Shown here: positions 2,074 through 17,970 of the stretch, piece by piece | Position numbering within the stretch: position 1 is the first letter of the stretch | Layout: the number at the start of each line of letters is the position of its first letter | Virus record (IMG/VR): IMGVR_UViG_2648501130_000005 | Coordinates: 1 to 17,970 of that record | Length of the DNA: 17,970 nt | Direction: 5' to 3' (one strand) | Source of the DNA: a virus | Lineage: Duplodnaviria; Heunggongvirae; Uroviricota; Caudoviricetes | Made by a program: the position numbers and the translations under genes | The notes under the pieces: generated by a model | The model's database searches: none | Told to the model about the DNA's origin: nothing | The model's input: the letters and a program-made list of their open reading frames with translations, nothing else

Positions 2074-2095
2074 TCCTCACGCTCCATAAATGACA

Positions 2096-2115
2096 AAACC
2101 GCCCGCAGGCGGTTT
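2096..2115 (-). terminator. Hairpin between the I-like stop and J-like start (perfect 8-bp stem, 4-nt loop, T-rich tail on minus strand)
   Basis: AAACCGCC cgca GGCGGTTT; on the minus strand the stem is followed by TTTTGTCATTT. Same intergenic arrangement as I recall for lambda I-J; may be an attenuator or stability element rather than a full terminator. Confidence 0.4.
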
Positions 2116-2133
2116 CACATAAAACATTTTGCA

Positions 2134-3060: not shown

Positions 3061-3209
3061 GGATCAGTAAGCGTAACTCTGGTAGGCTCACTCTGCTTTT
3101 GCGCTAAAGCAGTGGGCCGTGGTTCGCTTGTGACCAGTAAGCATGAGCGAATGGCTGGCAGGTGCTACCAACACCCACCAGCCGCCCATTTTCACAAATT
3201 AAAAGCCCT

Positions 3210-3404
3210 TCATTGCTGAAGGCGTCTGTAACAGCCGAACTGGTAATCTGCCAGCCCCGCCATAACCAACTGGGTCAGTATTAACTGACAGCGTTCGCGT
3301 GAAAGGTATGTGTTTTGTGCAATCTCCCCGACTGTTGCCGGTTCGATGCTTAATTCATTAAAAACAACTTTCGCCGTTTCTGTCATATCTTGCTGTTTTA
3401 GCAT
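3210..3404 (-). CDS. Small putative winged-helix DNA-binding protein (64 aa), function unknown
   Basis: 64-codon ORF with AAGGT 11 nt upstream of the ATG; the central segment ATVGEIAQNTYLSRERCQLILTQLVMAGL looks like a helix-turn-helix. Divergent from the KAP NTPase gene. Start could instead be the internal Met at 3386. Confidence 0.45.
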   Translation of the reverse strand: MLKQQDMTETAKVVFNELSIEPATVGEIAQNTYLSRERCQLILTQLVMAGLADYQFGCYRRLQQ

Positions 3405-3527
3405 GTCTTTTTACCTTCATGGTTAACATGACATACCAATAACTCTTGTCTAAAAAGCCAGCAAGATAAAAAATCAGTATTCACTACCACCAGCGTGTTT
3501 ACCGTACTGCACCAGGTTTACAGGTAC

Positions 3528-3553
3528 AAAAAAACCCGCTCGACAGCGGGTTT
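3528..3553 (-). terminator. Intrinsic terminator on minus strand (8-bp perfect stem, 5-nt loop, U-run)
   Basis: Plus strand reads AAAAAAA-CCCGCT-cgaca-GCGGGTTT, so the minus-strand RNA has the stem followed by a run of U. No annotated minus-strand gene lies immediately upstream. Confidence 0.5.
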
Positions 3554-3676
3554 AAGCTGTGTGGCGAAGTAACCACTCTTAACAGATTACAAGAATTTTT
3601 GCGGACCGCGTTAATGATTTTTAATCCCAAAGTCGTATTATTCGTTTTTTACTGTAGGAGTTAATAGGTTTATATT

Positions 3677-5008
3677 ATGTTAGATACACTATCTTTCACT
3701 GAACGTGACGAGTTCCAACGAAGAAACATCGCTGAAAATATCATCAAGTTGCTAAAACCAGAGGCAGACATTTCACCACTGGTAATAGACGGCGCATGGG
3801 GAACAGGGAAAACAGAATTTAGTATCAAACTGAAAAATCTCATTATTGAGCAAGAAACTGAATCTAAAGTTGTTTATATTGATGCCTTTAAAGGGGATCA
3901 TGCAGAATCTCCATTACTTCTCATAACCTCTGCAATTGCCAGCATTTTGCCTGAGGAAGAAAAACAACACTTCATTAAGAGATCTCTTCCTGCAATTCGC
4001 TTTGGTTTAAAAACGGTACTAAAAGCTGGTGCAGGTTGGTTTTTACGACAGGAGGCTAGTGAAGTTGCCGAAGAATTCCAAGATGCGATGAAGAAAGCAA
4101 GCAATGCAGCAATAGATGGGACTATTGAAAATTTGCTTGAAGACCATATGGACTCAGAGAAAAACATAAATTCACTTAAATCCTGCATCGAAAGCATATC
4201 AAAAAATCAAAAAATCGTAATTATAATTGATGAATTAGACCGATGTAAGCCGAGTTTTTCAACAAATGTCATTGAAACAATAAAACACATTTTTGACATC
4301 AATAATGTCTTTTTTATTTTAGTTACAAACACAGAACAATTAAAAGCATCTATAAATCATATTTATGGTTATAGCATTAACTCACAAAAGTATCTTGACA
4401 AGTTTATAAAATATACCATCACGCTTCCAGATACATGTTTGATAAATGGTCACAACGTATGTAAAGCCTCTGTTATATATTGGGATTACCTTGTAGAAAA
4501 AACAAGGTTATTGAATAAAATCAATAGATTATCAGGTTACTTTATCCGTGATTTAATTCAACGAACCAACTTATCATTACGTGAAACACAAACATTTTCA
4601 CGCAATCTTAACATTTTCCAACTGTTAAACGACGATGAGAACAAAAGCAGTGATCCTTTAATAAATATGATCTTTGTCGTAGCTGCCTTCATACATTGCT
4701 TTGGTAACAAGGAAAAACTAAAACAAGAAATTACCGCTGAATCTATATCTTATTTAGCAGACCTGCTTAACATAAAAGAAATACCTTATTCTTATGAGAG
4801 AAGATCGCAAATCCCTGAAATATCGATTGTATTCTTCGGAATAATTAAAGACAGTATTACTCTTAATGAGCGATTTGCCCCTAAAAGTGATGAAGAACTT
4901 AAAAAATTCACAAATGTTTATACTGATTATGAACACATAAATTTTTGGAGTACTACACCCAGAGAGTTATTGATAAAATATATTAATCAAATGTCATTCA
5001 TCCAGTAA
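3677..5008 (+). CDS. KAP-family P-loop NTPase (443 aa)
   Basis: Walker A DGAWGTGKT and the KAP-typical Walker B region IVIIIDELDRCKP. Visibly AT-rich with long A/T runs compared with flanking genes. Ends at the hairpin at 5011-5035. Confidence 0.85.
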   Translation: MLDTLSFTERDEFQRRNIAENIIKLLKPEADISPLVIDGAWGTGKTEFSIKLKNLIIEQETESKVVYIDAFKGDHAESPLLLITSAIASILPEEEKQHFIKRSLPAIRFGLKTVLKAGAGWFLRQEASEVAEEFQDAMKKASNAAIDGTIENLLEDHMDSEKNINSLKSCIESISKNQKIVIIIDELDRCKPSFSTNVIETIKHIFDINNVFFILVTNTEQLKASINHIYGYSINSQKYLDKFIKYTITLPDTCLINGHNVCKASVIYWDYLVEKTRLLNKINRLSGYFIRDLIQRTNLSLRETQTFSRNLNIFQLLNDDENKSSDPLINMIFVVAAFIHCFGNKEKLKQEITAESISYLADLLNIKEIPYSYERRSQIPEISIVFFGIIKDSITLNERFAPKSDEELKKFTNVYTDYEHINFWSTTPRELLIKYINQMSFIQ

Positions 5009-5010
5009 AT

Positions 5011-5035
5011 AATACGCCCCATGCAGGGGCGTATT
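5011..5035. terminator. Bidirectional intrinsic terminator between convergent KAP NTPase and Q genes
   Basis: Perfect 10-bp inverted repeat AATACGCCCC / GGGGCGTATT with loop ATGCA, sitting exactly between the KAP stop (5008) and the Q stop (5037), with A/T-rich flanks on both sides. Confidence 0.6.
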
Positions 5036-5036
5036 A

Positions 5037-5402
5037 TTAAACGTCCAAATCTAATGTTAGATCTAGCATGGAAAGGCAGCCATCAATAAATCCTTCGGCT
5101 AGCTGTATTTCTATACGTATCAATTTCTCATCTTTTTTACGAGCCTTGGCGAGCTTTCTTTTAGAGATACCGTATAGGTAATGGGCAACAAGAAGCGAAT
5201 GTTCGTCCGGCCTTTTTTGCTTTAGATGAGCAAGACAACCTTCAATAATTAAGGCATCACTATCCGAACAAGCCAAGCGTTTCTTGCTTGTATAGGGAAG
5301 AAGTCCCTTAAACCCAGCGGCTATAGGTGAATAATCAACGCCTGAACTATCACTCGCCGCCCATGCCCCCCAACGCTCCAGAACCATCTGAATATCACGC
5401 AT
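5037..5402 (-). CDS. Antitermination protein Q (QuuD-like lambdoid late-gene antiterminator)
   Basis: N-terminus MRDIQMVLERWGAWAA... is the signature I recall for E. coli prophage Q/QuuD proteins. ATG at 5402 with GGTGGAGA upstream; the track's first residue is a TTG one codon earlier. Confidence 0.8.
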   Translation of the reverse strand: MRDIQMVLERWGAWAASDSSGVDYSPIAAGFKGLLPYTSKKRLACSDSDALIIEGCLAHLKQKRPDEHSLLVAHYLYGISKRKLAKARKKDEKLIRIEIQLAEGFIDGCLSMLDLTLDLDV

Positions 5403-5419
5403 CAACTTTCTCCACCAAA

Positions 5420-6415
5420 TCAGGCTAGCACACCAATTGCCAACACACGGTCGATAAAACGAAATATCAGCTCCAGCTGGGAGCCATACTTCTCTTCAAA
5501 TGCCACGGTATCCGCATGCAGCTCGTCGTGATGCTTTCTGCACAAAGGCAACACAAAGAGGTCATGCGCTTTTGTACTCATTCCCCCCTGACCGTGGCCT
5601 ATCAGGTGGTGGGGATCATCAGCAGGCTTTCCACAACATGCACACGGCTGTGTCTTAACCCAGCGCGTGTACTTTTCATTAACCCAGCGGCGACGTTTGG
5701 GGCGTAACATAAAAGACTCCGGCGACTCCGGTTCCACTTTCAGCGCCAGCACCTTTTTCGCTTTATCCTGCATGATGCTGGTGGCTGGAACCGAAGGCAC
5801 AAGGTCACTTTCCCGGGTGACAGACGGCACAACAGGCTTCGGTAATCTCAGTGCCTTACGGGCTGCGCTTTCCGGTAAGGCATCCGCCAGATCATTACGA
5901 ACCAGCCACCAGCACAGTTCCGGCATTGTCACAACGTGACTATCATCAAAACCGAGATCCCGACGCACAACAGACAACACCCAGCGGGCACAGTTATCCG
6001 TTGCCATTGATTCCAGCCGTTCCGTGAACTGATCGCGCAGTTGGTTATCGCAGTGCCAGCACAGACGGATTGCGCCAGGCGCGTGTCGCATTGTGGTCAT
6101 GTTCTCGCTGTGCCAGTTGGAATGAGGCCACTGGCAGCCTTTTTCACGAAGTAACCAGCTTTCAAGACATTCCACGCCACCAGCACGACGGATCACTGCC
6201 TCATTGCGGAACACGGCCCGAACGGCAGGATCATCCGCCAGCGGTTGTGATGCCGCCGGAACGGCACCACTGGCGAAAGATGAATAACGTTCCGGCTCAG
6301 GCTCCAGCAGTACACGCCCCTGCATAAACAGGGGCATCAACTCTGAACCTGGCCTGAACAATACGATCCCCATACGCGGGGCAATTTCAGGGGTCAGTAG
6401 TGCTCTCACGGTCAC
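5420..6415 (-). CDS. DUF968-like nin-region protein with C-terminal HNH-like Cys/His motif
   Basis: C-terminal CACCGKPADDPHHLIGHGQGG...LCRKHHDELH; placed between KilA-N and Q as in lambdoid nin regions. Start uncertain: GTG at 6415 or 6409, or ATG at 6373; none has a clean SD. Confidence 0.6.
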   Translation of the reverse strand: MTVRALLTPEIAPRMGIVLFRPGSELMPLFMQGRVLLEPEPERYSSFASGAVPAASQPLADDPAVRAVFRNEAVIRRAGGVECLESWLLREKGCQWPHSNWHSENMTTMRHAPGAIRLCWHCDNQLRDQFTERLESMATDNCARWVLSVVRRDLGFDDSHVVTMPELCWWLVRNDLADALPESAARKALRLPKPVVPSVTRESDLVPSVPATSIMQDKAKKVLALKVEPESPESFMLRPKRRRWVNEKYTRWVKTQPCACCGKPADDPHHLIGHGQGGMSTKAHDLFVLPLCRKHHDELHADTVAFEEKYGSQLELIFRFIDRVLAIGVLA

Positions 6416-6416
6416 C

Positions 6417-7226
6417 TCAATGAACGGTATCGAGCAGCTTTAACAGCTCAGGGAATCGGGATTCGAAGAAATGCGGCTGCGTCTCGCGCGGATTTGCAGG
6501 ACTGGTGATGTTCTTGCCGAACATGCAGCCTTTCGCCGTCAGCGACCAGAATTTTTTGATGTTGTTAATCGCTGTACGGCTGTATCGTTCGCGCTGTTCG
6601 ACGATCCCCAGCTTCGCCATCTGGTGATATGCCTGATTAGCCGTAAGGCGGATACCATACTGTTTCAGCAGTGCACTCAGCGACAGTGTCGGGCGACTTG
6701 AGCCATCAGGCGCGTCAGCAGGAGCATCAATGGCATAGCGCGGTGCCAGATTCGGTAAGCCAACAGCCTCCTGGAGTTTCTGACAGGCCCCAAGCACTGA
6801 AGAGTTAGACAGGTTTAACTCCCTGCGCATAAAGTCCAGCAGAATCACGCCAGCCTGCATCTTGTCAGCAGCCTGCCCGGATAATTTTTCCGGTGCGCTG
6901 GTTACCATATCGAAAGTACGGATCACCTTCAGATGGAATGACGGGCTGATCCACATTGCATAGGCATACACCAGTTCTTTGCAGACATACGTCCCCTGGT
7001 TATTTCCGCCATTAATGACGCTAACTGGTTGATTTTGTTCCAGAGGCGGAATTCCACCCTCGGTGAAAAGTTGTTCAATCAATTCACAGGTTTGCTTATT
7101 GGAGAGCCAGTATTTCGGGCGGTTTTTTTGTTCTCCCCCGGCTGCCCTGTGCAGATCGTTCAGGCTGTAACGCCCATAAGCATCACGACGAACTTCAATA
7201 CCATCAATGACCATCAGATTATTCAT
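6417..7226 (-). CDS. KilA-N domain protein
   Basis: N-terminal MVIDGIEVRRDAYGRYSLNDLHRAAGG...YVCKELVYAYAMWISPSFHLKVIR is KilA-N-like. ATG at 7226 with AGGAGA 9 nt upstream; the track's GTG at 7259 was rejected. Confidence 0.7.
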   Translation of the reverse strand: MNNLMVIDGIEVRRDAYGRYSLNDLHRAAGGEQKNRPKYWLSNKQTCELIEQLFTEGGIPPLEQNQPVSVINGGNNQGTYVCKELVYAYAMWISPSFHLKVIRTFDMVTSAPEKLSGQAADKMQAGVILLDFMRRELNLSNSSVLGACQKLQEAVGLPNLAPRYAIDAPADAPDGSSRPTLSLSALLKQYGIRLTANQAYHQMAKLGIVEQRERYSRTAINNIKKFWSLTAKGCMFGKNITSPANPRETQPHFFESRFPELLKLLDTVH

Positions 7227-7245
7227 ACTTCGTTTCTCCTCTTGA

Positions 7246-7635
7246 TCAGGCGGCTGCACCCGCCGTTTTCTCGTACTTACTGATAGTGATCTCGACCTTC
7301 CCTTCCGGGATAACCGGTCCCCACTCCACCAGCATTCTTTTCACCTGGCTGTCGTCTTCCCACACACCCGCGTGGGTCAGGGCGTCAAACAGCGCCTTGT
7401 TATAGTTGTCCAGATCGCGGATCCGGTTATCCGGAGGAAACAACACGATCTCCACTGAAGCAGGTGCCGACGTTGGTTTCGGCAGACGACGTAACTGCTC
7501 AACTATTGCTGTGCACGCCGCACTTTGGAATTTTCGCCCCGCCGCGCTTATCAGGCTCTTACCAGCAAATGCCCCTTTGTTGGGGTGTCGCCAGTAGGTG
7601 TTCACGCTGGGTGGAAAAGGCAGAATCAGCTTCAT
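7246..7635 (-). CDS. rusA: Holliday junction resolvase RusA
   Basis: LPFPPSVNTYWRH ... RDLDNYNKALFDALTHAGVWEDDSQV matches the RusA family signature. Start ATG overlaps the upstream stop (ATGA). Confidence 0.85.
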   Translation of the reverse strand: MKLILPFPPSVNTYWRHPNKGAFAGKSLISAAGRKFQSAACTAIVEQLRRLPKPTSAPASVEIVLFPPDNRIRDLDNYNKALFDALTHAGVWEDDSQVKRMLVEWGPVIPEGKVEITISKYEKTAGAAA

Positions 7636-7958
7636 ACTTTCAGCCCCCTCTCATGTAACCAGTGGGCTGCACGCAGCCTTGCGTTTTCCTCACCGGCAAG
7701 CAGTGAGCGGATAATCCCGACCGCCTCGCTGTCGTCGTCCTTCACCGCGGTATGAAGCGTGATCCCCCGGGCCACACCACGCTTTATCGTGATGACGCCT
7801 TTTTTCTCCAGTGCGCGAAGATGCTCCACCGCTGCATTCACCGAACGGTATCCCAGCATGGTTGCCACCTCCTGATTGGTTGGCGGGAAGCCGCGTTCTT
7901 TCTGATAAGAAATCAGCATATCCAGCACCTGCTGCTGGCATTGAGTTAACGTCGTCAT
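7632..7958 (-). CDS. LexA N-terminal DNA-binding-domain-like protein (no peptidase domain)
   Basis: LTQCQQQVLDMLISYQKERGFPPTNQEVATMLGYRSVNAAVEHLRALEKKGVITIKRGVARGITL aligns closely with the LexA N-terminal winged helix as I recall it (…RSPNAAEEHLKALARKGVIEI…). Only 108 aa, so no S24 cleavage domain. ATGA overlaps at both ends. Confidence 0.75.
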   Translation of the reverse strand: MTTLTQCQQQVLDMLISYQKERGFPPTNQEVATMLGYRSVNAAVEHLRALEKKGVITIKRGVARGITLHTAVKDDDSEAVGIIRSLLAGEENARLRAAHWLHERGLKV

Positions 7959-8608
7959 GCCGCCATCTCCCTGACCAGTTTTTCTGCCTGCTGGCGAATC
8001 TGCGCCAGAAAGGCCTCACCACATGCCTCAAGTTCATCGCGCCCGATGTAGCTGATTGCCGGTCCCTTCCAGGTCTTGTCGAAAACAGCAATAGCACCAG
8101 CGAAGAAAGCGCCTGTCGGCACCTGCTTCTCATCCTTCGGGATAAACCAGGCAGGCAGTTCAAAACCAATACGCCCGCGAATAAAAGCAATATGATCTAC
8201 ATCTTCCGGCCACCACACTTCGCTGGTGGCAGCTTTGATCAGGAAAACATAGCGCCCGCCTTTATCACGCATGGCACTGGCATGCTTCATGATGTAACGC
8301 ATGCCGGTGATGTATTGCCCCTCATGCTGACTGGCGCGGCTGTATGGGGGATTACCAAAGGCAGCACCTTTAAGCTCCGCAAGGCGTTCTGACCAGTCAT
8401 GCGCCAGCGCGTTGTCTTCCGCCGTGTAATACGCAGCACATTTGGCGTTATCACCGTCAGTGAACAGATCCAGAACAAACGGGCCAAACAGGGTGTTAAT
8501 TCCCCAGAAAATGTTGTCCGGCGTGCGCCACTGATCGCCCACTTCCTTCAGTTCATGGGCTGGTTTGTTCCGCAGTTCCACCAGCGCCTGGCAATATTTA
8601 TTACTCAT
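7955..8608 (-). CDS. Phage N6-adenine DNA methyltransferase (Dam-type)
   Basis: GNPPYS (NPPY catalytic motif). ATG at 8608 with GTGGGGG upstream, overlapping the upstream TAA (TAATG). The track's GTG extension to 8641 was rejected. Confidence 0.75.
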   Translation of the reverse strand: MSNKYCQALVELRNKPAHELKEVGDQWRTPDNIFWGINTLFGPFVLDLFTDGDNAKCAAYYTAEDNALAHDWSERLAELKGAAFGNPPYSRASQHEGQYITGMRYIMKHASAMRDKGGRYVFLIKAATSEVWWPEDVDHIAFIRGRIGFELPAWFIPKDEKQVPTGAFFAGAIAVFDKTWKGPAISYIGRDELEACGEAFLAQIRQQAEKLVREMAA

Positions 8609-9096
8609 TAAGCCCCCACGTAATTCCCTGAGAGATACCACTCTTCACCTGATGCAGCCCGCTTACTGCTTTTCCGTAAACACCGTTCACGACGCGCCAA
8701 AAAATTGTTTCGTTCTGGCAGGGAGTGGCTTTCACGGAATGCCGCCATCCACACCGTTGCAGCACGACGGTATAAGCCCCTGGACTCCAGTTCTTCCGCC
8801 TGGCGGGTCAGGCACAAAATCACCCGCGGGTCGTTAGTGCCGACATAGAAATTGCGCACAGGTCTGGTTTCACGAACTGGTTGTGGTTCCGGATCCTGCG
8901 CTCTCTCAGTCAGGCGCGGGAAATGTCTGTGTGTATCTCCTTCACAACGGTGAGCCACACGCCCACTCTGACGTAACTTGCTTGCTGACTGCAGAACGCG
9001 CTGCCGTGAGTAACCTGCAAAAGCATCCGCAATGTCTCCGGAAGTACAGCCCGGATGGGCTTCAATGAATTTCTGAACGTCATTCAAAAGACTCAT
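8608..9096 (-). CDS. Putative transcriptional regulator with PerC-like C-terminal region
   Basis: AEELESRGLYRRAATVWMAAF resembles the PerC/Pch core motif (LESAGFWRRAAARW type). ATG at 9096 with GGGGGTGA upstream, 2 nt after the replication gene stop. Confidence 0.55.
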   Translation of the reverse strand: MSLLNDVQKFIEAHPGCTSGDIADAFAGYSRQRVLQSASKLRQSGRVAHRCEGDTHRHFPRLTERAQDPEPQPVRETRPVRNFYVGTNDPRVILCLTRQAEELESRGLYRRAATVWMAAFRESHSLPERNNFLARRERCLRKSSKRAASGEEWYLSGNYVGA

Positions 9097-9098
9097 GC

Positions 9099-9869
9099 TC
9101 ACCCCCTGAATCCTGCCGGGATCTGGCTGTAGTCCACATTGTCGTAACTGGCTTTGAAGTACGGGTCTTCGCGTTTTTCTGTGTACGTGCTGACGGACGG
9201 CGATAAGCGCAGGGAAAGCTCATCCCATTTTTCCCGCAGCTTCGACGGGCTGAGCACGTTACGGCACCAGAACGGATCGCGGCTGACGCGGCTGTACATC
9301 TCGCAGATTTGTTTGTGAGTACGACCATCCTGCACACACATCAGGCGAATTTCGTTTGCCCAGGCTGTCCAGTTCGGTTCTTTGGGACGAACCACCTCGC
9401 CGTCACATTCGGCAGCCTGCTCGTACAGGGCGATGATTTTTTTCCAGAGCCACTGTGCGCAGGTCAAATCATCCTGCGTCCCCCACTGGCGCTTTTTAGG
9501 GCTGAATACAACCGCATCAGGATGGCGAGTTAAAAAATCCTGTTCATCCGTCTGCGTGTCCGGTTGCGAAGCGTCCGGACGAGAAGGTTTTTTATCTGAC
9601 GGATCATGTTTTGATTTTACTGACGGATCCCCGCCAGATTCTGACGGGTGAAAACCCGCTTTTTTGCCAGATTTCGACGCATCAAATTTTGACGGGTCAG
9701 ATTTTGATGCGTCAGATTTTGACGGGTCAGAATCTGACAGTTGAGAAAATGCCGCTGCCTGAAGCTTCGCAACGTTAAGCTGATAAACATTCGACGCATT
9801 GCGGTTACCCACGGTTAGCCTCATCGTTCTGTGGTTTCTGTTAATCGATTTATCCATTAGATTTTTCAT
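9099..9869 (-). CDS. Replication initiation protein (lambda O-like role) with internal iteron-encoded peptide repeats
   Basis: Sits directly downstream of cro. The central SDSDPSKSDASKSDPSKFDASKSG region is encoded by tandem DNA repeats. Start uncertain: ATG at 9869, 9857 or 9824; the track's first codon at 9926 is GTG and lies deep inside cro. Confidence 0.6.
   Translation of the reverse strand: MKNLMDKSINRNHRTMRLTVGNRNASNVYQLNVAKLQAAAFSQLSDSDPSKSDASKSDPSKFDASKSGKKAGFHPSESGGDPSVKSKHDPSDKKPSRPDASQPDTQTDEQDFLTRHPDAVVFSPKKRQWGTQDDLTCAQWLWKKIIALYEQAAECDGEVVRPKEPNWTAWANEIRLMCVQDGRTHKQICEMYSRVSRDPFWCRNVLSPSKLREKWDELSLRLSPSVSTYTEKREDPYFKASYDNVDYSQIPAGFRG
9590..9740. repeat. Iteron array (putative origin of replication) inside the replication initiator gene
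   Basis: At least seven tandem ~15-17 bp copies of a (C)AGATTTTGACGGGTCA-like unit, e.g. attttgacgggtcag / attttgatgcgtcag / attttgacgggtcag. Analogous to the lambda ori iterons inside gene O. Confidence 0.6.
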
Positions 9870-10050
9870 AAAGCTCAGGTTTAAATGGCAACCGTCCGCA
9901 AGTTCTATATGCAGCTTCTGCTGCACGTCCTTTTGGAATTAACTGGCCCGGACGGTTTCGCCACTGATAAACGGCTTCAGTTGTTATGCCGAAAAAAGCA
10001 GCAACTTTCTCAATACTGCCGAAGTAGCTTTCGATATCGTCAGTTGTCAT
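9850..10050 (-). CDS. Cro-like transcriptional regulator
   Basis: 66 aa, divergent from the repressor gene; KVAAFFGITTEAVYQWR is a Cro/YdaS-type helix-turn-helix. Confidence 0.7.
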   Translation of the reverse strand: MTTDDIESYFGSIEKVAAFFGITTEAVYQWRNRPGQLIPKGRAAEAAYRTCGRLPFKPELYEKSNG

Positions 10051-10147
10051 ACGCCCTCCAAACTAAGTTTTATTAGATGCTAATTACAAATCTATCTTTG
10101 GTCAATAAAAACTAAGATTACTTAGCAATTAAAGAAATGGTGCTCCT
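10051..10147. promoter_or_regulatory. Divergent promoter/operator region between cro-like and cI-like genes
   Basis: 97-bp AT-rich intergenic region with two 14-bp palindromes: CTAAGattaCTTAG (10112-10125, perfect) and CTAAGttttATTAG (10063-10076, one mismatch). Minus strand carries TTGACC and a possible -10. Confidence 0.55.
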
Positions 10148-10774
10148 ATGGAAACGGTTGGTCAGCGTATAAAAGCTCTGAGAAGAGTTACCAGAACGTC
10201 CCAGAAAGAATTGGGTAAATTTTGTGGAGTAAGCGACGTTGCTGTGGGGTACTGGGAGAAAGACATCAATACCCCTGGTGGGGAGGCACTTTCGAAATTA
10301 GCGAAGTTCTTCAATACGTCAATAGATTACATTCTTTATGGTGCTGAGTTTGAAGGCAAACTCGTCACAAACATGCGCAGAGTTCCTGTAATATCGTGGG
10401 TTCAGGCTGGGCAGTTTACTGAGTGCAGGGCAGCAGAAGTGTTTAGTGAAGTGGACAAGTGGGTAGATACATCATTAAAGGTTGGTGATAACTCATTTGC
10501 ATTAGAGGTTAAAGGTGACTCCATGACTAACCCTAATGGCCTCCCAACAATACCAGAAGGCGCAACAGTGATTGTAGATCCAGATGCAGAACCTCGTCAT
10601 GGAAAAATAGTCATCGCTCGACTTGATGGAACAAACGAAGCTACAGTAAAAAAATTAGTCATCGATGGCCCTCAAAAGTTTTTAGTACCATTAAATCCTC
10701 GGTATCCCAACATCCCTATCAATGGTAATTGCCTTATCATTGGTGTAGTCAAAGGAGTTCAATACGAACTCTAA
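10148..10774 (+). CDS. CI-like prophage repressor (HTH plus S24 LexA-type autopeptidase domain)
   Basis: N-terminal XRE-type HTH (QKELGKFCGVSDVAVGYWE); C-terminal GDSM and a downstream Lys (VKKLV) typical of S24 self-cleaving repressors. SD-like sequence before the ATG. Confidence 0.85.
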   Translation: METVGQRIKALRRVTRTSQKELGKFCGVSDVAVGYWEKDINTPGGEALSKLAKFFNTSIDYILYGAEFEGKLVTNMRRVPVISWVQAGQFTECRAAEVFSEVDKWVDTSLKVGDNSFALEVKGDSMTNPNGLPTIPEGATVIVDPDAEPRHGKIVIARLDGTNEATVKKLVIDGPQKFLVPLNPRYPNIPINGNCLIIGVVKGVQYEL

Positions 10775-10927
10775 GGCCTCTCTTCTCTAACTAAGGCACC
10801 GAACTAAGAAAAGTTTGGTGTTTTCTCTTGCCATGACAACTAAGTTAAGTTAGATTTTATATCAAAGATAACGAACAGGCAGGACGCCCACGAAGTAGCC
10901 GCCTGGGGCATATGAAGTCCAGGATGA

Positions 10928-10952
10928 TTCGTTAGCAACAAAAAAGCGCCCT
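10928..10952 (-). terminator. Intrinsic terminator on minus strand downstream of the 173-aa gene
   Basis: On the minus-strand RNA: 7-bp stem AGCGUCC / GGGCGCU (one G-U pair), loop UGUA, then UUUUUUGUU. The G-U pair forms only on the minus-strand transcript. Confidence 0.5.
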
Positions 10953-11004
10953 ACAGGACGCTTAGCTCTTTAACAATCTGGGTATCATCCAACCAATGCA
11001 AGAT

Positions 11005-11526
11005 TTAAGGAATCCAAGGCGAATTCAGATCTCGCCCCAACTCACGTAATGATCTTGGTCGTTCGTACATCGGATTTTTTTCCATAAGAAATTTATTTTC
11101 ACAGTGAAGGCAACGGCTTGTAAGAAAATGAGAAGTTTTACCTACTGGAAGCGGATGAAGTATCGATTTTATATTTTTGGAATAACAAAGTGGGCACAGA
11201 TGCACAGTTATTTCTTTTCCACTCACAATTTCATTTTTAGAGTAAACAAAAGCACCAGAGTCAAGCTGATCAAGGACATATCCTTCTACCTTGGCACAAA
11301 AATCTTCAAACTCTGCAATTTTTGCTTTGAGATGCATCACCTCTTCATCACGAAGGCGGATCGCATCGCCAAGAGAGAAGCATTCTGCCTGAAGCGTGAT
11401 TAGTTTGTTCTGGAGTTCAATGGTTGCAGCTTTAACTTCTGCATCCGTTTTCGCGTCATTAATAACCTTAGCAAGACCGGCAGTCTCCTTTATAGCGGCC
11501 ATAGCCGCAGACAGTTCAGCTATCAC
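11005..11526 (-). CDS. Hypothetical coiled-coil / zinc-ribbon protein (moron convergent with cI)
   Basis: 173-codon ORF; N-terminal half is Ala/Lys/Glu-rich helical, C-terminal part has CPLC ... CLHC. C-terminal half is visibly AT-rich. Start is GTG at 11526 or ATG at 11502; neither has a strong SD. Confidence 0.6.
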   Translation of the reverse strand: MIAELSAAMAAIKETAGLAKVINDAKTDAEVKAATIELQNKLITLQAECFSLGDAIRLRDEEVMHLKAKIAEFEDFCAKVEGYVLDQLDSGAFVYSKNEIVSGKEITVHLCPLCYSKNIKSILHPLPVGKTSHFLTSRCLHCENKFLMEKNPMYERPRSLRELGRDLNSPWIP

Positions 11527-11542
11527 GTTGAATACTCAGCTA

Positions 11543-11586
11543 GTTGTTGGGGATATCCAGATTAACCAAATCCTTGTTGTTGGGGA
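11543..11586. repeat. Two exact 11-bp direct repeats GTTGTTGGGGA, 33 bp apart, just upstream of the 173-aa gene
   Basis: Seen directly at 11543-11553 and 11576-11586; function unknown. Confidence 0.5.
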
Positions 11587-11848
11587 ATAACTAGGTCCAC
11601 CTCGCCTGATGTGGCTAAAAGCAGGCACATAACAGCTAAGTATTTTCAACCAGAGAGAATCCTTAGCGTTGTGGTGAATGCGGCTCAGCGCACGCGGGTT
11701 AAGGTTGAGGCTGACAGTCGACCTTCTGTGGATACCCACCCGCCTGGTGTGCAACCTTCGCCAGGCACCGGGAGGCACCCGGCACCACAACTTTATGCTG
11801 TGTGTAGTCCTCGCGGTACCAGTTTGTACACTTGCTTCCGGCTGGTAC

Positions 11849-11947
11849 CGCTCTTTTTACAAAACAGAGAAGAACATCACCGGACGACGGGCTCATAACC
11901 CAATCCATCCGGGCGGCTGCCACCGCAGGTGTTCTTCTCTGTTTTGT
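11849..11947 (+). promoter_or_regulatory. boxA-like motif followed by an 18-bp perfect inverted repeat enclosing 53 nt (nut-like site or structured leader)
   Basis: CGCTCTTTTTAC (11849-11860) resembles boxA. Arms ACAAAACAGAGAAGAACA (11859-11876) and TGTTCTTCTCTGTTTTGT (11930-11947) are exact reverse complements. Lies 49 nt upstream of the yfdP-like ATG. Confidence 0.45.
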
Positions 11948-11995
11948 GGAGAAACCAACCGACCTTGCAGGGTCGATATGATTAGGAGCAGAAAA

Positions 11996-12358
11996 ATGGC
12001 TAGCGAACGCAGTACTGATGTGCAGGCATTTATTGGGGAGCTGGACGGCGGCGTATTTGAAACCAAAATCGGCGCAGTTCTCAGTGAAGTCGCTTCCGGT
12101 GTGATGAACACGAAAACCAAAGGTAAGGTCTCACTCAACCTGGAAATCGAACCATTTGATGAGAACCGTGTGAAAATCAAACACAAACTCTCATATGTTC
12201 GCCCGACTAACCGCGGGAAAATTTCCGAAGAAGACACCACCGAAACGCCGATGTATGTCAATCGCGGTGGTCGCCTGACTATTCTGCAGGAAGACCAGGG
12301 ACAATTACTGACTCTTGCCGGTGAACCTGACGGAAAACTCCGCGCAGCAGGTCATTAA
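11996..12358 (+). CDS. yfdP: YfdP-like early-left protein (120 aa)
   Basis: ATG at 11996 with AGGAG 7 nt upstream; the track ORF from 11678 is an unsupported upstream extension. Length and position match the yfdP-yfdQ-yfdR order I recall from CPS-53. Confidence 0.55.
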   Translation: MASERSTDVQAFIGELDGGVFETKIGAVLSEVASGVMNTKTKGKVSLNLEIEPFDENRVKIKHKLSYVRPTNRGKISEEDTTETPMYVNRGGRLTILQEDQGQLLTLAGEPDGKLRAAGH

Positions 12359-12423
12359 TATCGTTCTTAATTAACCGATTATTTATCTCATCACTGAATA
12401 TCTTTATATAGTGAGGACTTATT

Positions 12424-13248
12424 ATGTCTCAGAACTTAGACGCAACCGCAATTAATCAAATCCATGCCCTTATTTCTGCTCAGGGTGTTAATGAAATTAT
12501 CAGTAAGATTGGTGCCGATGCTGTGGCATTGCCTGAGAATTTCCGCATTCATGATCTGGAAAAATTTAATTTAAATCGCTTCCGTTTCCGTGGTGCGCTT
12601 TCCACTGCCAGCATCGATGACTTTACCCGTTACTCTAAAGATCTTGCAGATGAAGGCACCCGCTGCTTTATCGATGCCGATAATATGCGAGCCGTCAGTG
12701 TGCTTAACCTGGGTACTATTGATGAACCAGGTCACGCAGATAACACCGCCACACTCAAACTGAAAAAGACAGCACCGTTCTCTGCTCTGTTGTCTATTAA
12801 CGGCGAGCGTAACTCCCAGAAGTCACTAGCAGAATGGATTGAAGACTGGGCAGACTATCTTGTGGGCTTTGATGCTAATGGTGACGCTATTCAGGCAACA
12901 AAAGCGGCTGCGGCTGTCCGTAAAATCACGATTGAAGCAAACCAGACCGCTGATTTTGAAGATAATGACTTCAGCGGCAAACGCTCCCTGATGGAGTCTG
13001 TCGAAGCGAAGACCAAAGATATTATGCCTGTGGCATTTGAATTTAAATGCGTTCCGTTTGAAGGCCTGAAAGAACGTCCGTTTAAATTACGCCTCAGCAT
13101 TATCACTGGCGATCGTCCTGTACTGGTTCTGCGCATTATTCAGCTGGAAGCAGTGCAGGAAGAAATGGCTAACGAATTTCGTGATCTGCTTGTTGAGAAA
13201 TTCAAGGACAGCAAAGTAGAAACCTTTATTGGTACTTTCACCGCCTGA
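12424..13248 (+). CDS. yfdQ: YfdQ-like protein (DUF2303 family, 274 aa)
   Basis: GAGGA 6 nt upstream of the ATG. Length and N-terminus [14 protein letters not shown]... match my recollection of K-12 YfdQ. Confidence 0.7.
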
Positions 13249-13260
13249 TTTCATTACTGC

Positions 13261-13282
13261 AAATGCCCCTGCGGGGGCATTT
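13261..13282 (+). terminator. Hairpin downstream of yfdQ-like gene (possible partial terminator or attenuator)
   Basis: AAATGCCCC tgcg GGGGCATTT: perfect 9-bp stem, but only a short T-run follows. Confidence 0.4.
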
Positions 13283-13375
13283 ATGGAAACGTAATTGACT
13301 CAATAATCGCCGGATGGTGAGGGCTTCCTTTTACCAGAATTCAGCGCGGTGCAGCGCATATACGTGGAGAACAAA

Positions 13376-13912
13376 ATGTCATTTATTAAAACTTTTTCCG
13401 GGAAGCATTTTTATTATGACAGGATAAATAAAGACGACATCGTTATTAACGATATCGCGGTTTCTCTTTCAAATATCTGTCGCTTTGCAGGGCATCTTTC
13501 ACATTTCTACAGCGTTGCCCAACATGCGGTGCTTTGCAGCCAACTGGTACCGCAGGAATTTGCTTTTGAAGCGTTAATGCATGATGCAACAGAAGCGTAT
13601 TGCCAGGACATCCCGGCGCCACTGAAACGCCTTCTTCCTGACTATAAACGGATGGAAGAAAAAATAGATGCAGTAATCCGTGAGAAATACGAGTTGCCCC
13701 CGGTTATGAGCACGCCCGTGAAATATGCCGATCTCATCATGCTGGCAACCGAACGCCGTGATCTCGGGCTTGATGATGGCTCTTTATGGCCTGTACTGGA
13801 AGGTATCCCGGCAACAGAGATGTTCAAAGTTATTCCACTGGCACCGGGCCATGCCTACGGGATGTTTATGGAACGCTTCAACGAGTTATCGGAATTACGC
13901 AAATGTGCATAA
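13376..13912 (+). CDS. yfdR: HD-domain phosphohydrolase (YfdR-like, 178 aa)
   Basis: H...HD motif (AQHAV ... LMHDATEAY). ATG at 13376 with GGAGA upstream; the track's GTG at 13349 was rejected. Its 3' end overlaps the next gene by 10 nt. Confidence 0.8.
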   Translation: MSFIKTFSGKHFYYDRINKDDIVINDIAVSLSNICRFAGHLSHFYSVAQHAVLCSQLVPQEFAFEALMHDATEAYCQDIPAPLKRLLPDYKRMEEKIDAVIREKYELPPVMSTPVKYADLIMLATERRDLGLDDGSLWPVLEGIPATEMFKVIPLAPGHAYGMFMERFNELSELRKCA

Positions 13913-14781
13913 CTCATGTAGTTAGTTTTTCTGGCGGGAGAACATCCGCATATCTTGTTCACCTGATGGAAGAACAAAGAAAGGCTGGCAATAACGTCTG
14001 CTACATCTTTATGGATACCGGTTGCGAACATCCGCTGACATACCGCTTTATCCGGGAGGTTGTGAAGTTCTGGGACATACCACTAACTGTGTTACAGGTC
14101 GATATAAATCCTGAGCTTGGGCAGCCAAATGGTTATACAGAATGGGAGCCAAAGGATATTCAGACACGAATGCCGGTGCTTAAACCGTTTATGGACATGG
14201 TTAAAAAGTACGGCACGCCATACATCGGCGGCGCGCTCTGTACTGATAGGCTAAAACTCATCCCTTTCACAAAATACTGCGATAACCATTTCGGGCGAGG
14301 TAATTACATCACATGGCTGGGTATTCGTGCAGACGAACCCCGTAGGCTGAAACCGAAATCGGGCGTCCGGTATCTTGCCGAGCTGTCAGATTTTGATAAG
14401 TCGGATGTTATCCGGTGGTGGCGAAAACAACCTTTTGATTTGCAAATCCCGGAGCATCTCGGGAACTGTGTTTTCTGCATCAAAAAGTCAACGCAAAAGC
14501 TGGGGCTTGCATGTAAAGACGAACCAGGTCTGATGCGAGTTTTTAATGAGCTGGTTACAGGCAAACACGTCAGGGATGGTCATCGCAGAACAGGTAAAGA
14601 CATTATGTACCGTGGTCACCTGACGCTTGACGGAATTGCCAGAATGTCTGCCAACAGCGACTACAGAAATTTGTATCAGGCGATGGTACAGGCCAGGCGA
14701 TTCGATACCGGCTCGTGTTCAGAGTCATGTGAAATCTGGGGTGATCAATTGGAATTGGAATTCAAAGAGGTAGGGGTATGA
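13903..14781 (+). CDS. PAPS-reductase-like PP-loop ATP pyrophosphatase family protein with C-terminal Cys cluster
   Basis: PP-loop VVSFSGGRTSAYL near the N-terminus; Cys pairs (CVFC, CSESC) near the C-terminus. ATG at 13903 overlaps the HD gene stop; the track's 13786 start is an upstream in-frame extension inside the HD gene. Confidence 0.8.
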   Translation: MCITHVVSFSGGRTSAYLVHLMEEQRKAGNNVCYIFMDTGCEHPLTYRFIREVVKFWDIPLTVLQVDINPELGQPNGYTEWEPKDIQTRMPVLKPFMDMVKKYGTPYIGGALCTDRLKLIPFTKYCDNHFGRGNYITWLGIRADEPRRLKPKSGVRYLAELSDFDKSDVIRWWRKQPFDLQIPEHLGNCVFCIKKSTQKLGLACKDEPGLMRVFNELVTGKHVRDGHRRTGKDIMYRGHLTLDGIARMSANSDYRNLYQAMVQARRFDTGSCSESCEIWGDQLELEFKEVGV

Positions 14782-15122
14782 CAACCGAAATTAACTACCA
14801 TGCACTGCTTGAGCGCGCACGGAATAAAGTGCAGAGCATTGAGTTCGCCTTAACACAGAGTGCATTCGCTGAGATTCGCGCTGAGCTTGAAAATGATTTA
14901 GAACTGGCACGGATTGCACTGGCATCTCTGGAAGTTGAGCCAGATGAACGCGCAGCCTATGAATTATTTATGGAAAAGCGTTTCGGTAAAACAGTCGATC
15001 GTCGGAGAGCAAAAAACGGCGATAACGAATACATGGCATGGGATATGACTCTCGGTTGGATCGTCTGGCAGCAACGAGCTGGTATCCATTTTTCAACAAT
15101 GTCACAGCAAGAGGTGAAATAA
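14778..15122 (+). CDS. Hypothetical early protein (114 aa)
   Basis: ATG overlaps the upstream TGA (ATGA) and its TAA overlaps the xis ATG (TAATG). GAGG/GGGG upstream. No recognisable motif. Confidence 0.6.
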   Translation: MTTEINYHALLERARNKVQSIEFALTQSAFAEIRAELENDLELARIALASLEVEPDERAAYELFMEKRFGKTVDRRRAKNGDNEYMAWDMTLGWIVWQQRAGIHFSTMSQQEVK

Positions 15123-15472
15123 TGGAGCCATACAGCCTCACACTCGATGAGGCCTGTCATTTTCTCAAGATATCCAGACCGACTGCCATTAACTGGATAC
15201 GCACAGGGCGTCTTCAGGCAACACGCAAAGATCCCACTAAGAATAAATCTCCTTACCTCACAACACGACAAGCCTGCATTGCGGCTCTTCAGTCTCCGCT
15301 GCATACTGTCCAGGTGAGCGCGGGTGATGGCATAACAGAGGAAAGAAAATGTCACTCTTCCGCAGAGGTGAAATATGGTACGCCAGTTTCACATTGCCGA
15401 ACGGTAAAAGATTTAAACAGTCTCTTGGAACAAAGGACAAAAGGCAGGCGACAGAACTCCATGACAAGCTAA
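15122..15472 (+). CDS. xis: Excisionase (Xis), 116 aa
   Basis: ATG at 15122 with GAGGTGA upstream. HTH-like [24 protein letters not shown]. Overlaps the int start as in lambda/P22 xis-int. The track's 15038 start is an unsupported extension. Confidence 0.7.
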
Positions 15473-16512
15473 AGGCTGAAGCATGGCGGGTCAGCAAACT
15501 TGGTGAAATACCTGATATAACGTTCGAGGAAGCGTGTGTCAGGTGGCTTGAAGAGAAAGCACATAAAAAATCACTGGACGATGACAAAAGCCGGATCGGA
15601 TTCTGGCTTCAACATTTCGCAGGAATGCAACTAAGAGACATTACTGAATCAAAAATTTATTCAGCAATGCAGAAAATGACGAACCGGCGTCATGAGGAAA
15701 ACTGGAAACTCAGGGCAGAAGCATGCAGAAAAAAAGGGAAACCTGTTCCAGAATACACGCCAAAACCAGCGTCCGTTGCAACGAAGGCTACGCATCTTTC
15801 ATTTATAAAGGCCCTACTAAGAGCCGCAGAGCGTGAATGGAAAATGCTGGATAAGGCACCAATTATTAAAGTGCCTCAACCAAAGAATAAACGGATCCGC
15901 TGGCTGGAGCCCCATGAAGCACAAAGGCTGATTGATGAATGTCCGGAGCCATTAAAGTCTGTTGTTGAATTTGCACTGGCAACAGGCTTAAGACGCTCGA
16001 ACATCATCAACCTTGAATGGCAACAAATAGATATGCAGCGCCGGGTGGCATGGATAAACCCAGAAGAGAGTAAATCAAACCGCGCAATCGGCGTTGCGCT
16101 GAATGATACTGCATGTCGCGTTTTGAAAAAACAAATCGGGAATCATCACCGTTGGGTATTTGTGTACAAGGAAAGCTGTACCAAACCAGACGGAACGAAA
16201 GCGCCAACAGTAAGGAAGATGCGGTATGACGCAAACACAGCCTGGAAAGCGGCGCTGAGACGGGCTGGTATTGATGATTTCAGATTTCACGACTTGAGAC
16301 ACACCTGGGCAAGTTGGCTGGTTCAAGCCGGAGTCCCGTTGTCAGTGTTACAGGAAATGGGAGGCTGGGAGTCTATCGAAATGGTTCGTCGATATGCTCA
16401 CCTTGCACCTAATCACCTTACCGAACACGCACGGCAAATAGACTCGATCCTGAACCCATCGGTCCCAAATTTGTCCCAGTCAAAAAATAAGGAAGGTACT
16501 AATGATGTGTAA
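15349..16512 (+). CDS. int: Tyrosine-recombinase phage integrase (P22-type, thrW-specific), 387 aa
   Basis: AGAGGAAAG upstream of the ATG. Catalytic HDLRHTW ... RYAHL motifs. Stops 14 nt before the tRNA-Thr 3' end. Confidence 0.9.
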
Positions 16513-16526
16513 CTTATTGATTTAAA

Positions 16527-16602
16527 TGGTGCCGATAATAGGAGTCGAACCTACGACCTTCGCATTACGAATGCGCTGCTCTACCAACTGAGCTATATCG
16601 GC
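16527..16602 (-). tRNA. thrW: tRNA-Thr (anticodon CGU)
   Basis: Reverse complement reads GCCGATATAGCTCAGTTGGTAGAGCAGCGCATTCGTAATGCGAAGGTCGTAGGTTCGACTCCTATTATCGGCACCA: 7-bp acceptor stem, GTTCGA T-loop, anticodon loop with CGT, encoded CCA. Confidence 0.9.
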
Positions 16603-16716
16603 CCTGAAAGGACATGTTCACGAACGTGAATCACGGTGGACAAGGTTAAAACTAACCGGGCGATGCGTCAATGGCCTTGTGAATCAAATGGCTACTTTTG
16701 CATCACCCGGTTTTAT

Positions 16717-17970
16717 TTACGCACGAATGGTGTAATCACCAATACCGATCCACTTGTAAGTGGTCAGTGCTTCCAGCCCCATTGGGCCACGCGCGTGGAG
16801 TTTTTGTGTGCTTACCGCCACTTCCGCACCTAGTCCAAACTGGCCGCCGTCGGTAAAACGCGTAGAGGCGTTAACGTAAACAGCGGACGAATCCACTTCG
16901 TTAACAAAACGCTGGGCGTTGCGCATATCGCGGGTCAGGATCGCATCGGAGTGTTGTGTGCCGTGTTCACGAATATGGGCGATGGCATCGTCAAGATCAC
17001 TGACGATTTTGACGTTCAAATCTAATGACAGAAACTCATCGTCATACTCTTCCGCTTTAACAGCCACCACCTTCGCGGGGCCTGTCTGCAACTGCGCCAG
17101 CGCAGCTGCATCTGCGTGTAATGCCACGCCGCTTTCCTCCATTTGTTTGCTTAATGCGGGCAGGAAGCTATCGGCGATGTTTTTATTCACCAGCAACGTT
17201 TCTACCGTATTACATGTGCTCGGACGCTGAGTTTTCGCGTTGACGATCACTTTTAATGCTTCAGCAATCTCTACACTTTCATCAACATAAATATGGCATA
17301 CGCCTATACCACCTGTGATCACCGGGATCGTCGACTGTTCGCGGCACAGTTTATGCAAACCAGCGCCACCACGCGGGATCAGCATGTCGATGTATTTATC
17401 CATACGCAGCATTTCACTGACCAGCGCACGGTCAGGATTATCAATCGCCTGCACGGCACCCACCGGTAAGCCACAGGATTTCAGGGCGTCCTGAATCACC
17501 GCCACCGTTGCCGCGTTAGTGCGACAGGTTTCTTTACCGCCACGCAGAATCACTGCGTTACCGGTTTTCAGGCACAGCGAAGCGACATCAACCGTCACGT
17601 TCGGGCGCGCTTCATAAATCACGCCAATAACCCCCAGCGGTACGCGACGACGCTCAAGACGCAGGCCGCTGTCCAGTACGCTGCCATCGATTACCTGCCC
17701 CACCGGATCGGCGAGGTTACACACCTGGCGCACATCATCGGCAATGCCTTTCAGCCGTGCGGGCGTCAGTGCCAGACGGTCAAGCATCGCTTCGCCAAGG
17801 CCATTGGCACGCGCGTCAGCAACATCCTGGGCGTTAGCGTTGAGGATGATTTCGCTTTGTGCTTCCAGTTCATCGGCGATTTTTTCCAGCACGCGATTTT
17901 TTTCGCGGCTGGAGAGTTGCGCTAATTTATACGAGGCTTGCTTCGCGGCAATGCCCATTTGTTCCAGCAT
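16717..17970 (-). CDS. proA: Gamma-glutamyl phosphate reductase ProA (417 aa, host gene)
   Basis: Full-length ORF starting exactly at the window end; [40 protein letters not shown]... matches E. coli ProA as I recall it. Confidence 0.95.

Follow-up and report, generated by a model that had tools for sequence, protein, structure and literature searches.

The DNA considered here is a window of 17,970 nucleotides (nt), positions 1 to 17,970 of the IMG/VR virus record IMGVR_UViG_2648501130_000005, and the genes in question form a cassette at positions 11996-15124 that runs into the excisionase and integrase genes, xis and int. The region is probably the early-left operon, expressed from the leftward promoter PL, of a defective lambdoid prophage of the SfV/SfIV/CPS-53 type, integrated in Escherichia coli at thrW/proA, with the mode of expression and the roles proposed below. 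Judged by sequence and gene order, the cassette is the already known yfdPQRST module of prophage CPS-53, or orf32-28 of phage SfV, in which a homologue of lambda ninC stands in for yfdS. The finding is mostly an ordinary one, a mosaic version of a prophage operon that has already been catalogued. The greatest potential novelty lies outside the cassette, in the covarying leader RNA with which the operon begins.

Both the sequence and the list of open reading frames (ORFs) place all five cassette genes on the + strand, co-directional with xis and int. The initial annotation had described them as tightly coupled, with three overlapping junctions, and these overlaps can be read directly off the sequence: 10 nt between yfdR and the ninC homologue (13903-13912), ATGA between the ninC homologue and the yfdT-like gene (14778-14781), and TAATG between the latter and xis (15120-15124). 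A fourth overlap, not described earlier, joins xis to int over 124 nt and is annotated likewise in SfV. Tight coupling holds for the distal half of the operon, from yfdR onward, and not for yfdP, yfdQ and yfdR, which are spaced by 65 and 127 nt. Every start codon is preceded by a Shine-Dalgarno-like purine run, seen on direct reading of the sequence, and the true ATG of yfdR, at 13376, has GGAG upstream. PGAP places the start of xis at 15038; the product of the ATG at 15122 matches the PHROG excisionase profile (phrog_2907) from end to end (residues 1-116 against positions 2-117 of 117), which supports the TAATG junction over the PGAP start. Gene lengths and overlaps are identical in K-12 CPS-53, SfV, SfIV and phage Kati. 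The overlaps are not due to chance, since they recur in these relatives, and since the ATG within the 10-nt overlap is common to two alternative genes, yfdS and ninC. From yfdR on, ribosomes would be handed from gene to gene by the overlapping stop and start signals, and such coupling would fix the order and the proportions in which NinC, the YfdT-like protein, Xis and Int are produced. The assignments made at the outset to YfdP, YfdQ, an HD-domain protein and a PP-loop protein proved correct, both by profile and by identity to the K-12 CPS-53 proteins (YfdP, 99.2%; YfdQ, 98.9%; YfdR, 97.2%); PF27127 is the family recorded on homologues of YfdP. Int is 98-100% identical to the integrases of SfV and SfIV.

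The synteny with CPS-53 (KpLE1) is close: gene order, the 65- and 127-nt spacers, the 10-nt overlap after yfdR and the TAATG-type junction into a P22-type xis are all found in K-12. The order matches that of the known yfdPQRST module except that the place of yfdS, which in K-12 encodes a DUF551 protein, is taken by the ninC homologue, and that the 5' end of yfdT differs. YfdS itself has no match in the window. The DNA of the window and that of K-12 are collinear up to CGCAAATG, which holds the start codon used by both yfdS and the ninC homologue, located 10 nt inside the 3' end of yfdR, and divergence starts there. Homology returns at about 14913, inside yfdT. The exchanged segment of about 1 kb (about 13914-14912) thus holds the ninC homologue and a new 5' end for yfdT, and in DNA it is 89% identical to its counterpart in the Stx2a-type phage Ss-VASD, an early-left gene resembling ninC. 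Accordingly, the C-terminal 81 amino acids (aa) of the YfdT-like protein are 83% identical to K-12 YfdT, while the N-terminus (about the first 35-45 residues) is unrelated to it and specific to the swapped cassette; among the loci compared, the N-terminal 50 aa match only the identical E. coli locus. (The protein was also considered as a NinD-like partner of NinC, an idea rejected because it has no similarity to lambda NinD.) The yfdR-ninC-orf114 arrangement is present in 291 of 5,426 complete E. coli genomes. Among the genomes listed without ninC, the match breaks off at query positions 131-133, no more than 2 nt away from the stop codon of yfdR. By these sequence boundaries, the ninC-for-yfdS swap is one made at a translational-coupling junction, reusing the overlapping ATG. 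Because the exchange falls precisely at that junction, the new gene inherits the start codon of the old one, and alternative cargo genes, yfdS or ninC, are traded there.

Beyond the cassette, CPS-53 differs from the window in its recombination functions: K-12 lacks a start codon for the P22-type xis and uses torI and intS at argW, whereas in the window xis and int are intact, at thrW. A remnant of the P22-type xis is still found directly 3' of yfdT in K-12, where TAATAG corresponds to TAATGG in the window. The change of ATG to ATA explains both the ypdJ fragment and the use of torI.

The early-left position proposed for the cassette follows from the immunity region. The cI-like repressor gene, of the S24/helix-turn-helix type (10148-10774), is on the + strand, and a P22-type cro (P22_Cro, 9850-10050), like cI assigned by Pfam, is on the - strand, followed on its 3' side, on the same strand, by an O-like replication gene and genes for PerC-like, Dam, LexA-like, RusA, KilA-N, DUF968/HNH and Q proteins. 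With cI on the + strand, the + direction is "leftward" in lambda terms, so that the cassette, flanked by the immunity region and xis/int and sharing the strand of cI, belongs to the PL operon, as had been claimed. The nearest phages are the Shigella serotype-converting phages SfIV and SfV, with 98% DNA identity over most of the region and the same gene order, int, xis, thrW/proA attachment site, leader RNA and yfdP leader. Those phages are complete, with yfdS and yfdT in the cassette and gtr genes beyond int; the window, on the other hand, holds a remnant with ninC. Its left part includes a KAP NTPase gene, a methyltransferase/tail-assembly chimera and a gene for the tail-tip protein J, and profile scans found no head or lysis genes among the ORFs of the window, which marks the prophage as defective. 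In the chimeric ORF (2134-3060, -), half of a DNA methyltransferase, the N-terminal one, runs into the C-terminal part of a lambda tail-assembly protein I; the ORF marks the deletion of the lysis, head and most tail genes.

Table. Features of the early-left region and its surroundings, in window coordinates
Feature	Position	Strand	Remarks
Phage Dam gene	7955-8641	-	rightward operon; PF05869
Putative OL/PL	10790-10860	+	operator-like repeats and promoter-like site
Structured leader RNA	10870-10933	+	64 nt; covariation; unannotated
Hairpin	10944-10963	+	on the - strand, the terminator of orf173 (terminator scan)
boxA-like GCTCTTTAACAA	10965-10976	+	exact; after hairpin 10944-10963, about 30 nt 3' of the leader RNA
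orf173	11005-11526	-	phrog_1244; antisense to the PL transcript
yfdP non-coding leader	11597-11995	+	about 400 nt; conserved
yfdP	11996-12358	+	120 aa; PF27127 / phrog_204
yfdQ	12424-13248	+	274 aa; DUF2303, Pfam E = 2e-92
GC-rich hairpin	13261-13282	+	9 bp; yfdQ-yfdR spacer; fold prediction
yfdR	13376-13912	+	178 aa; HD-domain 5'-deoxynucleotidase; phrog_318 E = 2e-109
ninC homologue	13903-14781	+	292 aa; PP-loop / PAPS-reductase-like
yfdT-like gene	14778-15122	+	114 codons/aa
xis, P22/SfV type	15122-15472	+	116 aa; HTH_17 (Pfam); phrog_2907
int, SfV/P22-type tyrosine recombinase	15349-16512	+	387 aa; PF00589 E = 3e-48
tRNA-Thr(CGU), thrW attachment site	16527-16602	-	next to proA
proA	16717-17970	-	right end of window

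What would drive such an operon? AACTAAG-type operator-like repeats are found on both sides of cI, those at the putative OL resembling those between cI and cro, where repeats D2, D3 and D5 link 10061-10125 with 10802-10863, and a promoter scan gives a promoter-like site, TTGCCA-17-TAGATT, at 10828-10856; a leftward operator (OL) and PL are placed here on the strength of these motifs. The next element is the leader RNA, in which a closing stem, P1, surrounds an invariant hairpin, the invariant single strand AGGCAGGACGCCCACGAAGUAGC and a covarying hairpin, P2. By blastn it is present in 51 phage records, and is unannotated in nearly all among the matches listed, while at least 120 IMG/VR contigs contain the invariant 22-mer. 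Carriers include SfV, SfII, SfIV, ST64B, ZF40, YeP1, SPN3UB, mEp237 and Klebsiella phages. Over 50 distinct sequences, 95.4% of cells are paired in the proposed structure, against 22-43% in slid controls; compensatory changes are seen in 10 of its 14 pairs, and RNAalifold independently gives the same fold. The position is conserved as well. In all six phages examined, the RNA lies 5' of the early-left genes, which are themselves very different, and in five of the six it is 3' of the repressor gene and on the same strand. The best promoter-like -10 element ends 12-16 nt 5' of P1 in 42 of 74 sequences, compared with 6 of 59 shuffles, a comparison that is indicative only, the sequences being related.

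One comparison is with the put RNAs of phage HK022, which are RNA-only processive antiterminators of about 70 nt. Like put, the leader RNA is of that size (64 nt), has two hairpins, and is found immediately 3' of the predicted PL (the predicted -10 ends at 10856) in a phage with no recognisable N gene. Unlike put, it has no sequence or covariance-model similarity to the putL-putR region, it is present in single copy, with none after PR, and both hairpins are inside a closing stem. A covariance model of the leader RNA gives the window copy 89.9 bits; the rest of the window yields no match better than E = 0.8, the 24-36 kb region of HK022 that holds put none better than E = 4.7, and the nutL region of lambda none at all. 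Rfam has no match to it, even at E <= 10. The RNA was thus rejected as a put, a nut or a known Rfam family on BLAST, Rfam and covariance-model results alike. Downstream of it stands GCTCTTTAACAA, which is boxA-like by the consensus of rrn and nut sites; the boxA-like pattern has one match, where 0.11 would be expected with up to one mismatch allowed. This motif and the hairpin before it suggest an involvement of Nus factors in early-left transcription. From its sequence and position, the leader RNA may be a read-through leader for the early-left operon, and in the window it may cooperate with the exact boxA that follows 30 nt later. By analogy, it could be a put-like modifier of RNA polymerase, or a switch that senses a ligand or factor. 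It is a candidate answer to how lambdoid phages without N carry early transcription over terminators to xis and int; the phages concerned may include SfV, ST64B, Gifsy/mEp237-like phages, ZF40 and the Klebsiella phages.

There is a good deal to be read through. Once the cI-like repressor is inactivated, transcription would start from the promoter just 3' of cI (about 10828-10856) and the 64-nt leader RNA would be made first; RNA polymerase would then proceed antisense through orf173 and along a long structured leader with a terminator-like hairpin before entering yfdP. (The product of orf173 has a coiled-coil N-terminus and a CxxC...CxxC C-terminus, and the gene comes with a strong terminator of its own; at this position SfV has, in its stead, orf33 on the + strand.) Conservation of the yfdP leader is 95-97% for SfV, SfIV and Kati, and 77% for ST64B. 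The leader includes the terminator-like hairpin, with a U-tract, at about 11812-11858, and a near-perfect hairpin with 25-bp arms at 11859-11947 (inverted repeat I1) that could be a site for RNase III. The Rfam family STnc100 (RF02076) matches 11638-11860 with 49.1 bits against a gathering score of 47, and no STnc100 match at gathering score is found in SfV (95.6% identity over this stretch) or in the corresponding regions of SfIV and Kati (96%); the match is marginal, is not reproduced in these near-identical relatives, and was not relied on. Further on, the terminator scan made no call at the hairpin between yfdQ and yfdR, which is possibly a weak attenuator or an element of RNA stability, if the predicted fold is correct. 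An RNA close to the promoter that aided RNA polymerase in passing these structures would suit such an arrangement.

The same structures can be turned to a different account, in which the cassette is a domesticated remnant kept for the benefit of the host, in stress tolerance or as a brake on replication, and expressed from promoters of its own, independent of PL, xis and int. Not only do terminator-like structures stand between PL and the genes, but the head and lysis genes are gone from this prophage, and the CPS-53 counterparts persist in K-12 despite a dead xis. Both yfdQ and yfdS have been tied to stress tolerance (PMC4776307), and a phenotype of CPS-53 yfdQ is described in a preprint. This explanation is nevertheless unlikely: cI, cro, the operators, xis and int are all intact in the window prophage, the overlapping junctions into xis have been kept, the same operon is found in the viable phages SfV, SfIV, Kati and PhiR29, and the promoter scan found no promoter-like site in 11527-13376.

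What, then, do the genes do? The initial annotation, having recognised no canonical recombination genes in the cassette, had noted that it lies where genes of host takeover and anti-defence are usually found. The takeover part has published backing, while the anti-defence part, which concerns NinC, is backed only indirectly. In K-12, YfdR binds DnaA via Phe46 and competes with DiaA and DnaB (Noguchi and Katayama, PMC4776307). Multicopy yfdQ and yfdR together with either yfdS or yfdT block initiation at oriC, yfdP being dispensable, and yfdQ is needed for the DnaA-related phenotype (PMC4776307). Since the window keeps yfdQ, yfdR and a yfdT-like gene, the DnaA-directed activity could survive the loss of yfdS. 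In the proposed scheme, YfdQ, YfdR and the YfdT-like protein would act on the initiation of host replication, with YfdR binding DnaA, and YfdR would also hydrolyse deoxynucleoside monophosphates. Overall, the cassette genes are accessory ones, probably host-directed and counter-defence, rather than recombination genes.

The absence of recognisable recombination genes is borne out by every search made. Profile searches with Pfam, PHROG and NCBIfam, the check by which ordinary recombination genes would have been identified, returned no recombination family for any of the five cassette proteins; the approximately 7.1 kb that run from the leader element as far as the window's end, and contain the whole operon, gave nothing by tblastn for lambda Exo, Bet or Gam, Rac RecE or RecT, or HK022 Erf or Abc2; and neither YfdQ nor YfdP matched an annealing protein (Rad52/Redbeta/RecT/Erf-like) when searched by fold. 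For the remaining ORFs of the window, which were covered by profile scans only, RusA was the sole recombination-related match.

It is conceivable that YfdP and YfdQ are themselves the missing functions, a non-canonical recombination module that replaces RecET, Red or Erf in this lineage. The pair occupies the position of recE/recT, and of the 82 IMG/VR loci in which the PL leader RNA is followed by 3 kb or more of sequence, 25 have YfdP and YfdQ, 37 have RecE/RecT-like proteins and none has both (Fisher p = 4e-9, a value that overstates the exclusivity because the loci are mutually related). YfdP and YfdQ co-occur in 29 of 29 loci, behaving as an obligate pair, and the window has the RusA resolvase without an annealing protein. 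Furthermore, a homologue of YfdQ has been solved (PDB 9o7m, titled 'YfdQ Protein', with a sequence 98.8% identical to that of a Xanthomonas phage MET23-P3 protein), and its 36 chains point to a large oligomer. (This structure could reveal the role of DUF2303.) However, YfdP and YfdQ are encoded directly 3' of a Bet/RecT-like gene and a lambda-Exo homologue in Ss-VASD, and in one operon with a recombinase, an exonuclease and a single-stranded DNA-binding protein in the Xylella phage Usme. With YfdPQ beside Bet/Exo-type genes elsewhere, the exclusivity reflects lineage and not function; the predicted model of YfdP had no match in the fold search, and some relatives retain yfdR-S-T-xis-int without yfdPQ. 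A hidden recombinase is quite improbable on these grounds, and was rejected as the main reading. As far as the sequences go, the lack of recombination genes is a property of the phage lineage and not of the cassette.

The PP-loop protein that replaced YfdS is 79% identical to lambda NinC over 285 aa. It has the PP-loop motif SFSGGRTS at residues 8-15 and the invariant cysteines C113, C126, C189, C192, C272 and C276, which include a CxxC and a CxxxC pair. With lambda NinC it shares the SGGRTS motif, these cysteine pairs and an ATGA overlap with the following gene; the location differs, since lambda ninC is in the rightward operon between ninB and ninD, whereas that of the window is leftward, near xis. 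(Stx2a-type phages such as Ss-VASD, at 93% identity, also have NinC in the early-left operon.) To our knowledge, lambda NinC has no assigned function, and a literature search on the function of NinC found nothing useful. In a library of defence proteins, the top match was SspD (hidden Markov model, E = 2.9e-14), covering residues 5-152 against profile positions 2-125 of 277, in the N-terminal half only; BrxP was a weak match (E = 4e-4). By sequence match over this half, NinC may have a PP-loop ATP-pyrophosphatase domain in common with DndC, SspD and BrxP (BREX type 4). Unlike them, it is not part of a host modification-restriction system, and no DndA/B/D/E or SspA/B/C families were found among the scanned ORFs of the window.

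A link to DNA comes from the phage Dam gene. Family phrog_33262, of 495 positions, is matched by the window NinC at 2-279 and by the window Dam at 283-492, and in Vibrio phages the PF05869 Dam is fused to a NinC-family protein, as in fusion protein P0199, which carries both domains. Vibrio phage 44E38.1 has a fusion of a phosphoadenosine phosphosulfate (PAPS) reductase and Dam, to whose N-terminal half the NinC homologue is 55% identical over 283 aa, and to whose C-terminal half the window Dam is 28% identical (E = 4e-14). Unlike in this fusion, NinC and Dam of the window are separate genes in opposite operons; in Salmonella phage Oslo, dam and ninC are neighbours. Fusion and adjacency together make a Rosetta-stone link that suggests a joint function of Dam and NinC. 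The 44E38.1 fusion is presumably the phage PAPS reductase that has been connected with evasion of Dnd. Such evasion of host Dnd, promoted by a phage PAPS reductase, is reported in a 2026 paper (PMC13551039) that cites Piel et al. 2022.

Taking these points together, we infer that the NinC homologue, most likely, is a PP-loop enzyme directed at DNA and a partner of the phage Dam. NinC would be related to DndC and SspD, a PP-loop ATP pyrophosphatase whose metal site is rich in cysteines, and with Dam it would probably act on DNA, so that the phage escapes phosphorothioate-type or other modification-dependent defence. That the protein is instead an auxiliary metabolic, CysH-like PAPS reductase that boosts sulfur assimilation by the host is very unlikely and was rejected: the PHROG and PGAP names fit such an enzyme, as does a PF01507 match of 35.5 bits against a cut-off of 22.5, but this similarity is confined to the N-terminal 65 or so residues, the PP-loop; the score for the CysH equivalog is 20 bits, where 154 are required; adenosine phosphosulfate and PAPS reductases in the PDB match residues 4-70 only (E about 0.003); and identity to lambda NinC, the fusion or adjacency of the family to Dam, and SspD as top defence-library match all point elsewhere. 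With a DndC/SspD-like enzyme working alongside phage Dam against modification-based defence, lambda NinC is tied to a specific hypothesis, the genes for which are available in E. coli. If true, a counter-defence role would give lambda NinC a function at last. The joint proposal, namely that the leader RNA is a new promoter-proximal class serving operon read-through in lambdoid phages without N, and that NinC and Dam form a DNA-directed counter-defence, is a tentative one that may well not hold in both its parts.

Several points weigh against the operon and the roles as set out here. PL, its start site and read-through are predicted, and with a terminator-like U-tract hairpin 5' of yfdP and a strong hairpin between yfdQ and yfdR, the seven genes may not be one transcript. 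In a prophage reduced to a remnant, the operon may have ceased to serve lytic growth. The NinC homologue is found without adjacent DndA/D/E or SspA/B/C partners, and we know of no activity of YfdP, YfdQ or YfdT. The data on YfdR and DnaA come from multicopy expression in K-12, where deletion of yfdQRST had no phenotype (PMC4776307). Lastly, the anti-Dnd report, as cited in PMC13551039, speaks of a phage PAPS reductase whose identity with the 44E38.1 fusion is presumptive.

Two further observations concern the rightward side of the prophage. SfV-like phages carry matches to C4 antisense RNA and isrK above the Rfam gathering score, one at the SfV locus (3813-4001, -) and another at a second SfV-like locus (4100-4288, -); these sit in the rightward operon, and Rfam gives none in the window. 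The KAP-family P-loop NTPase gene (3677-5008, +), with a GC content of about 31%, adjoins Q on the opposite strand. Over its full length the product matches PDC-S20, one of the candidate defence families of PADLOC (E = 4.5e-177), PifA and QatA being weaker matches, and the gene is probably a prophage-borne defence gene.

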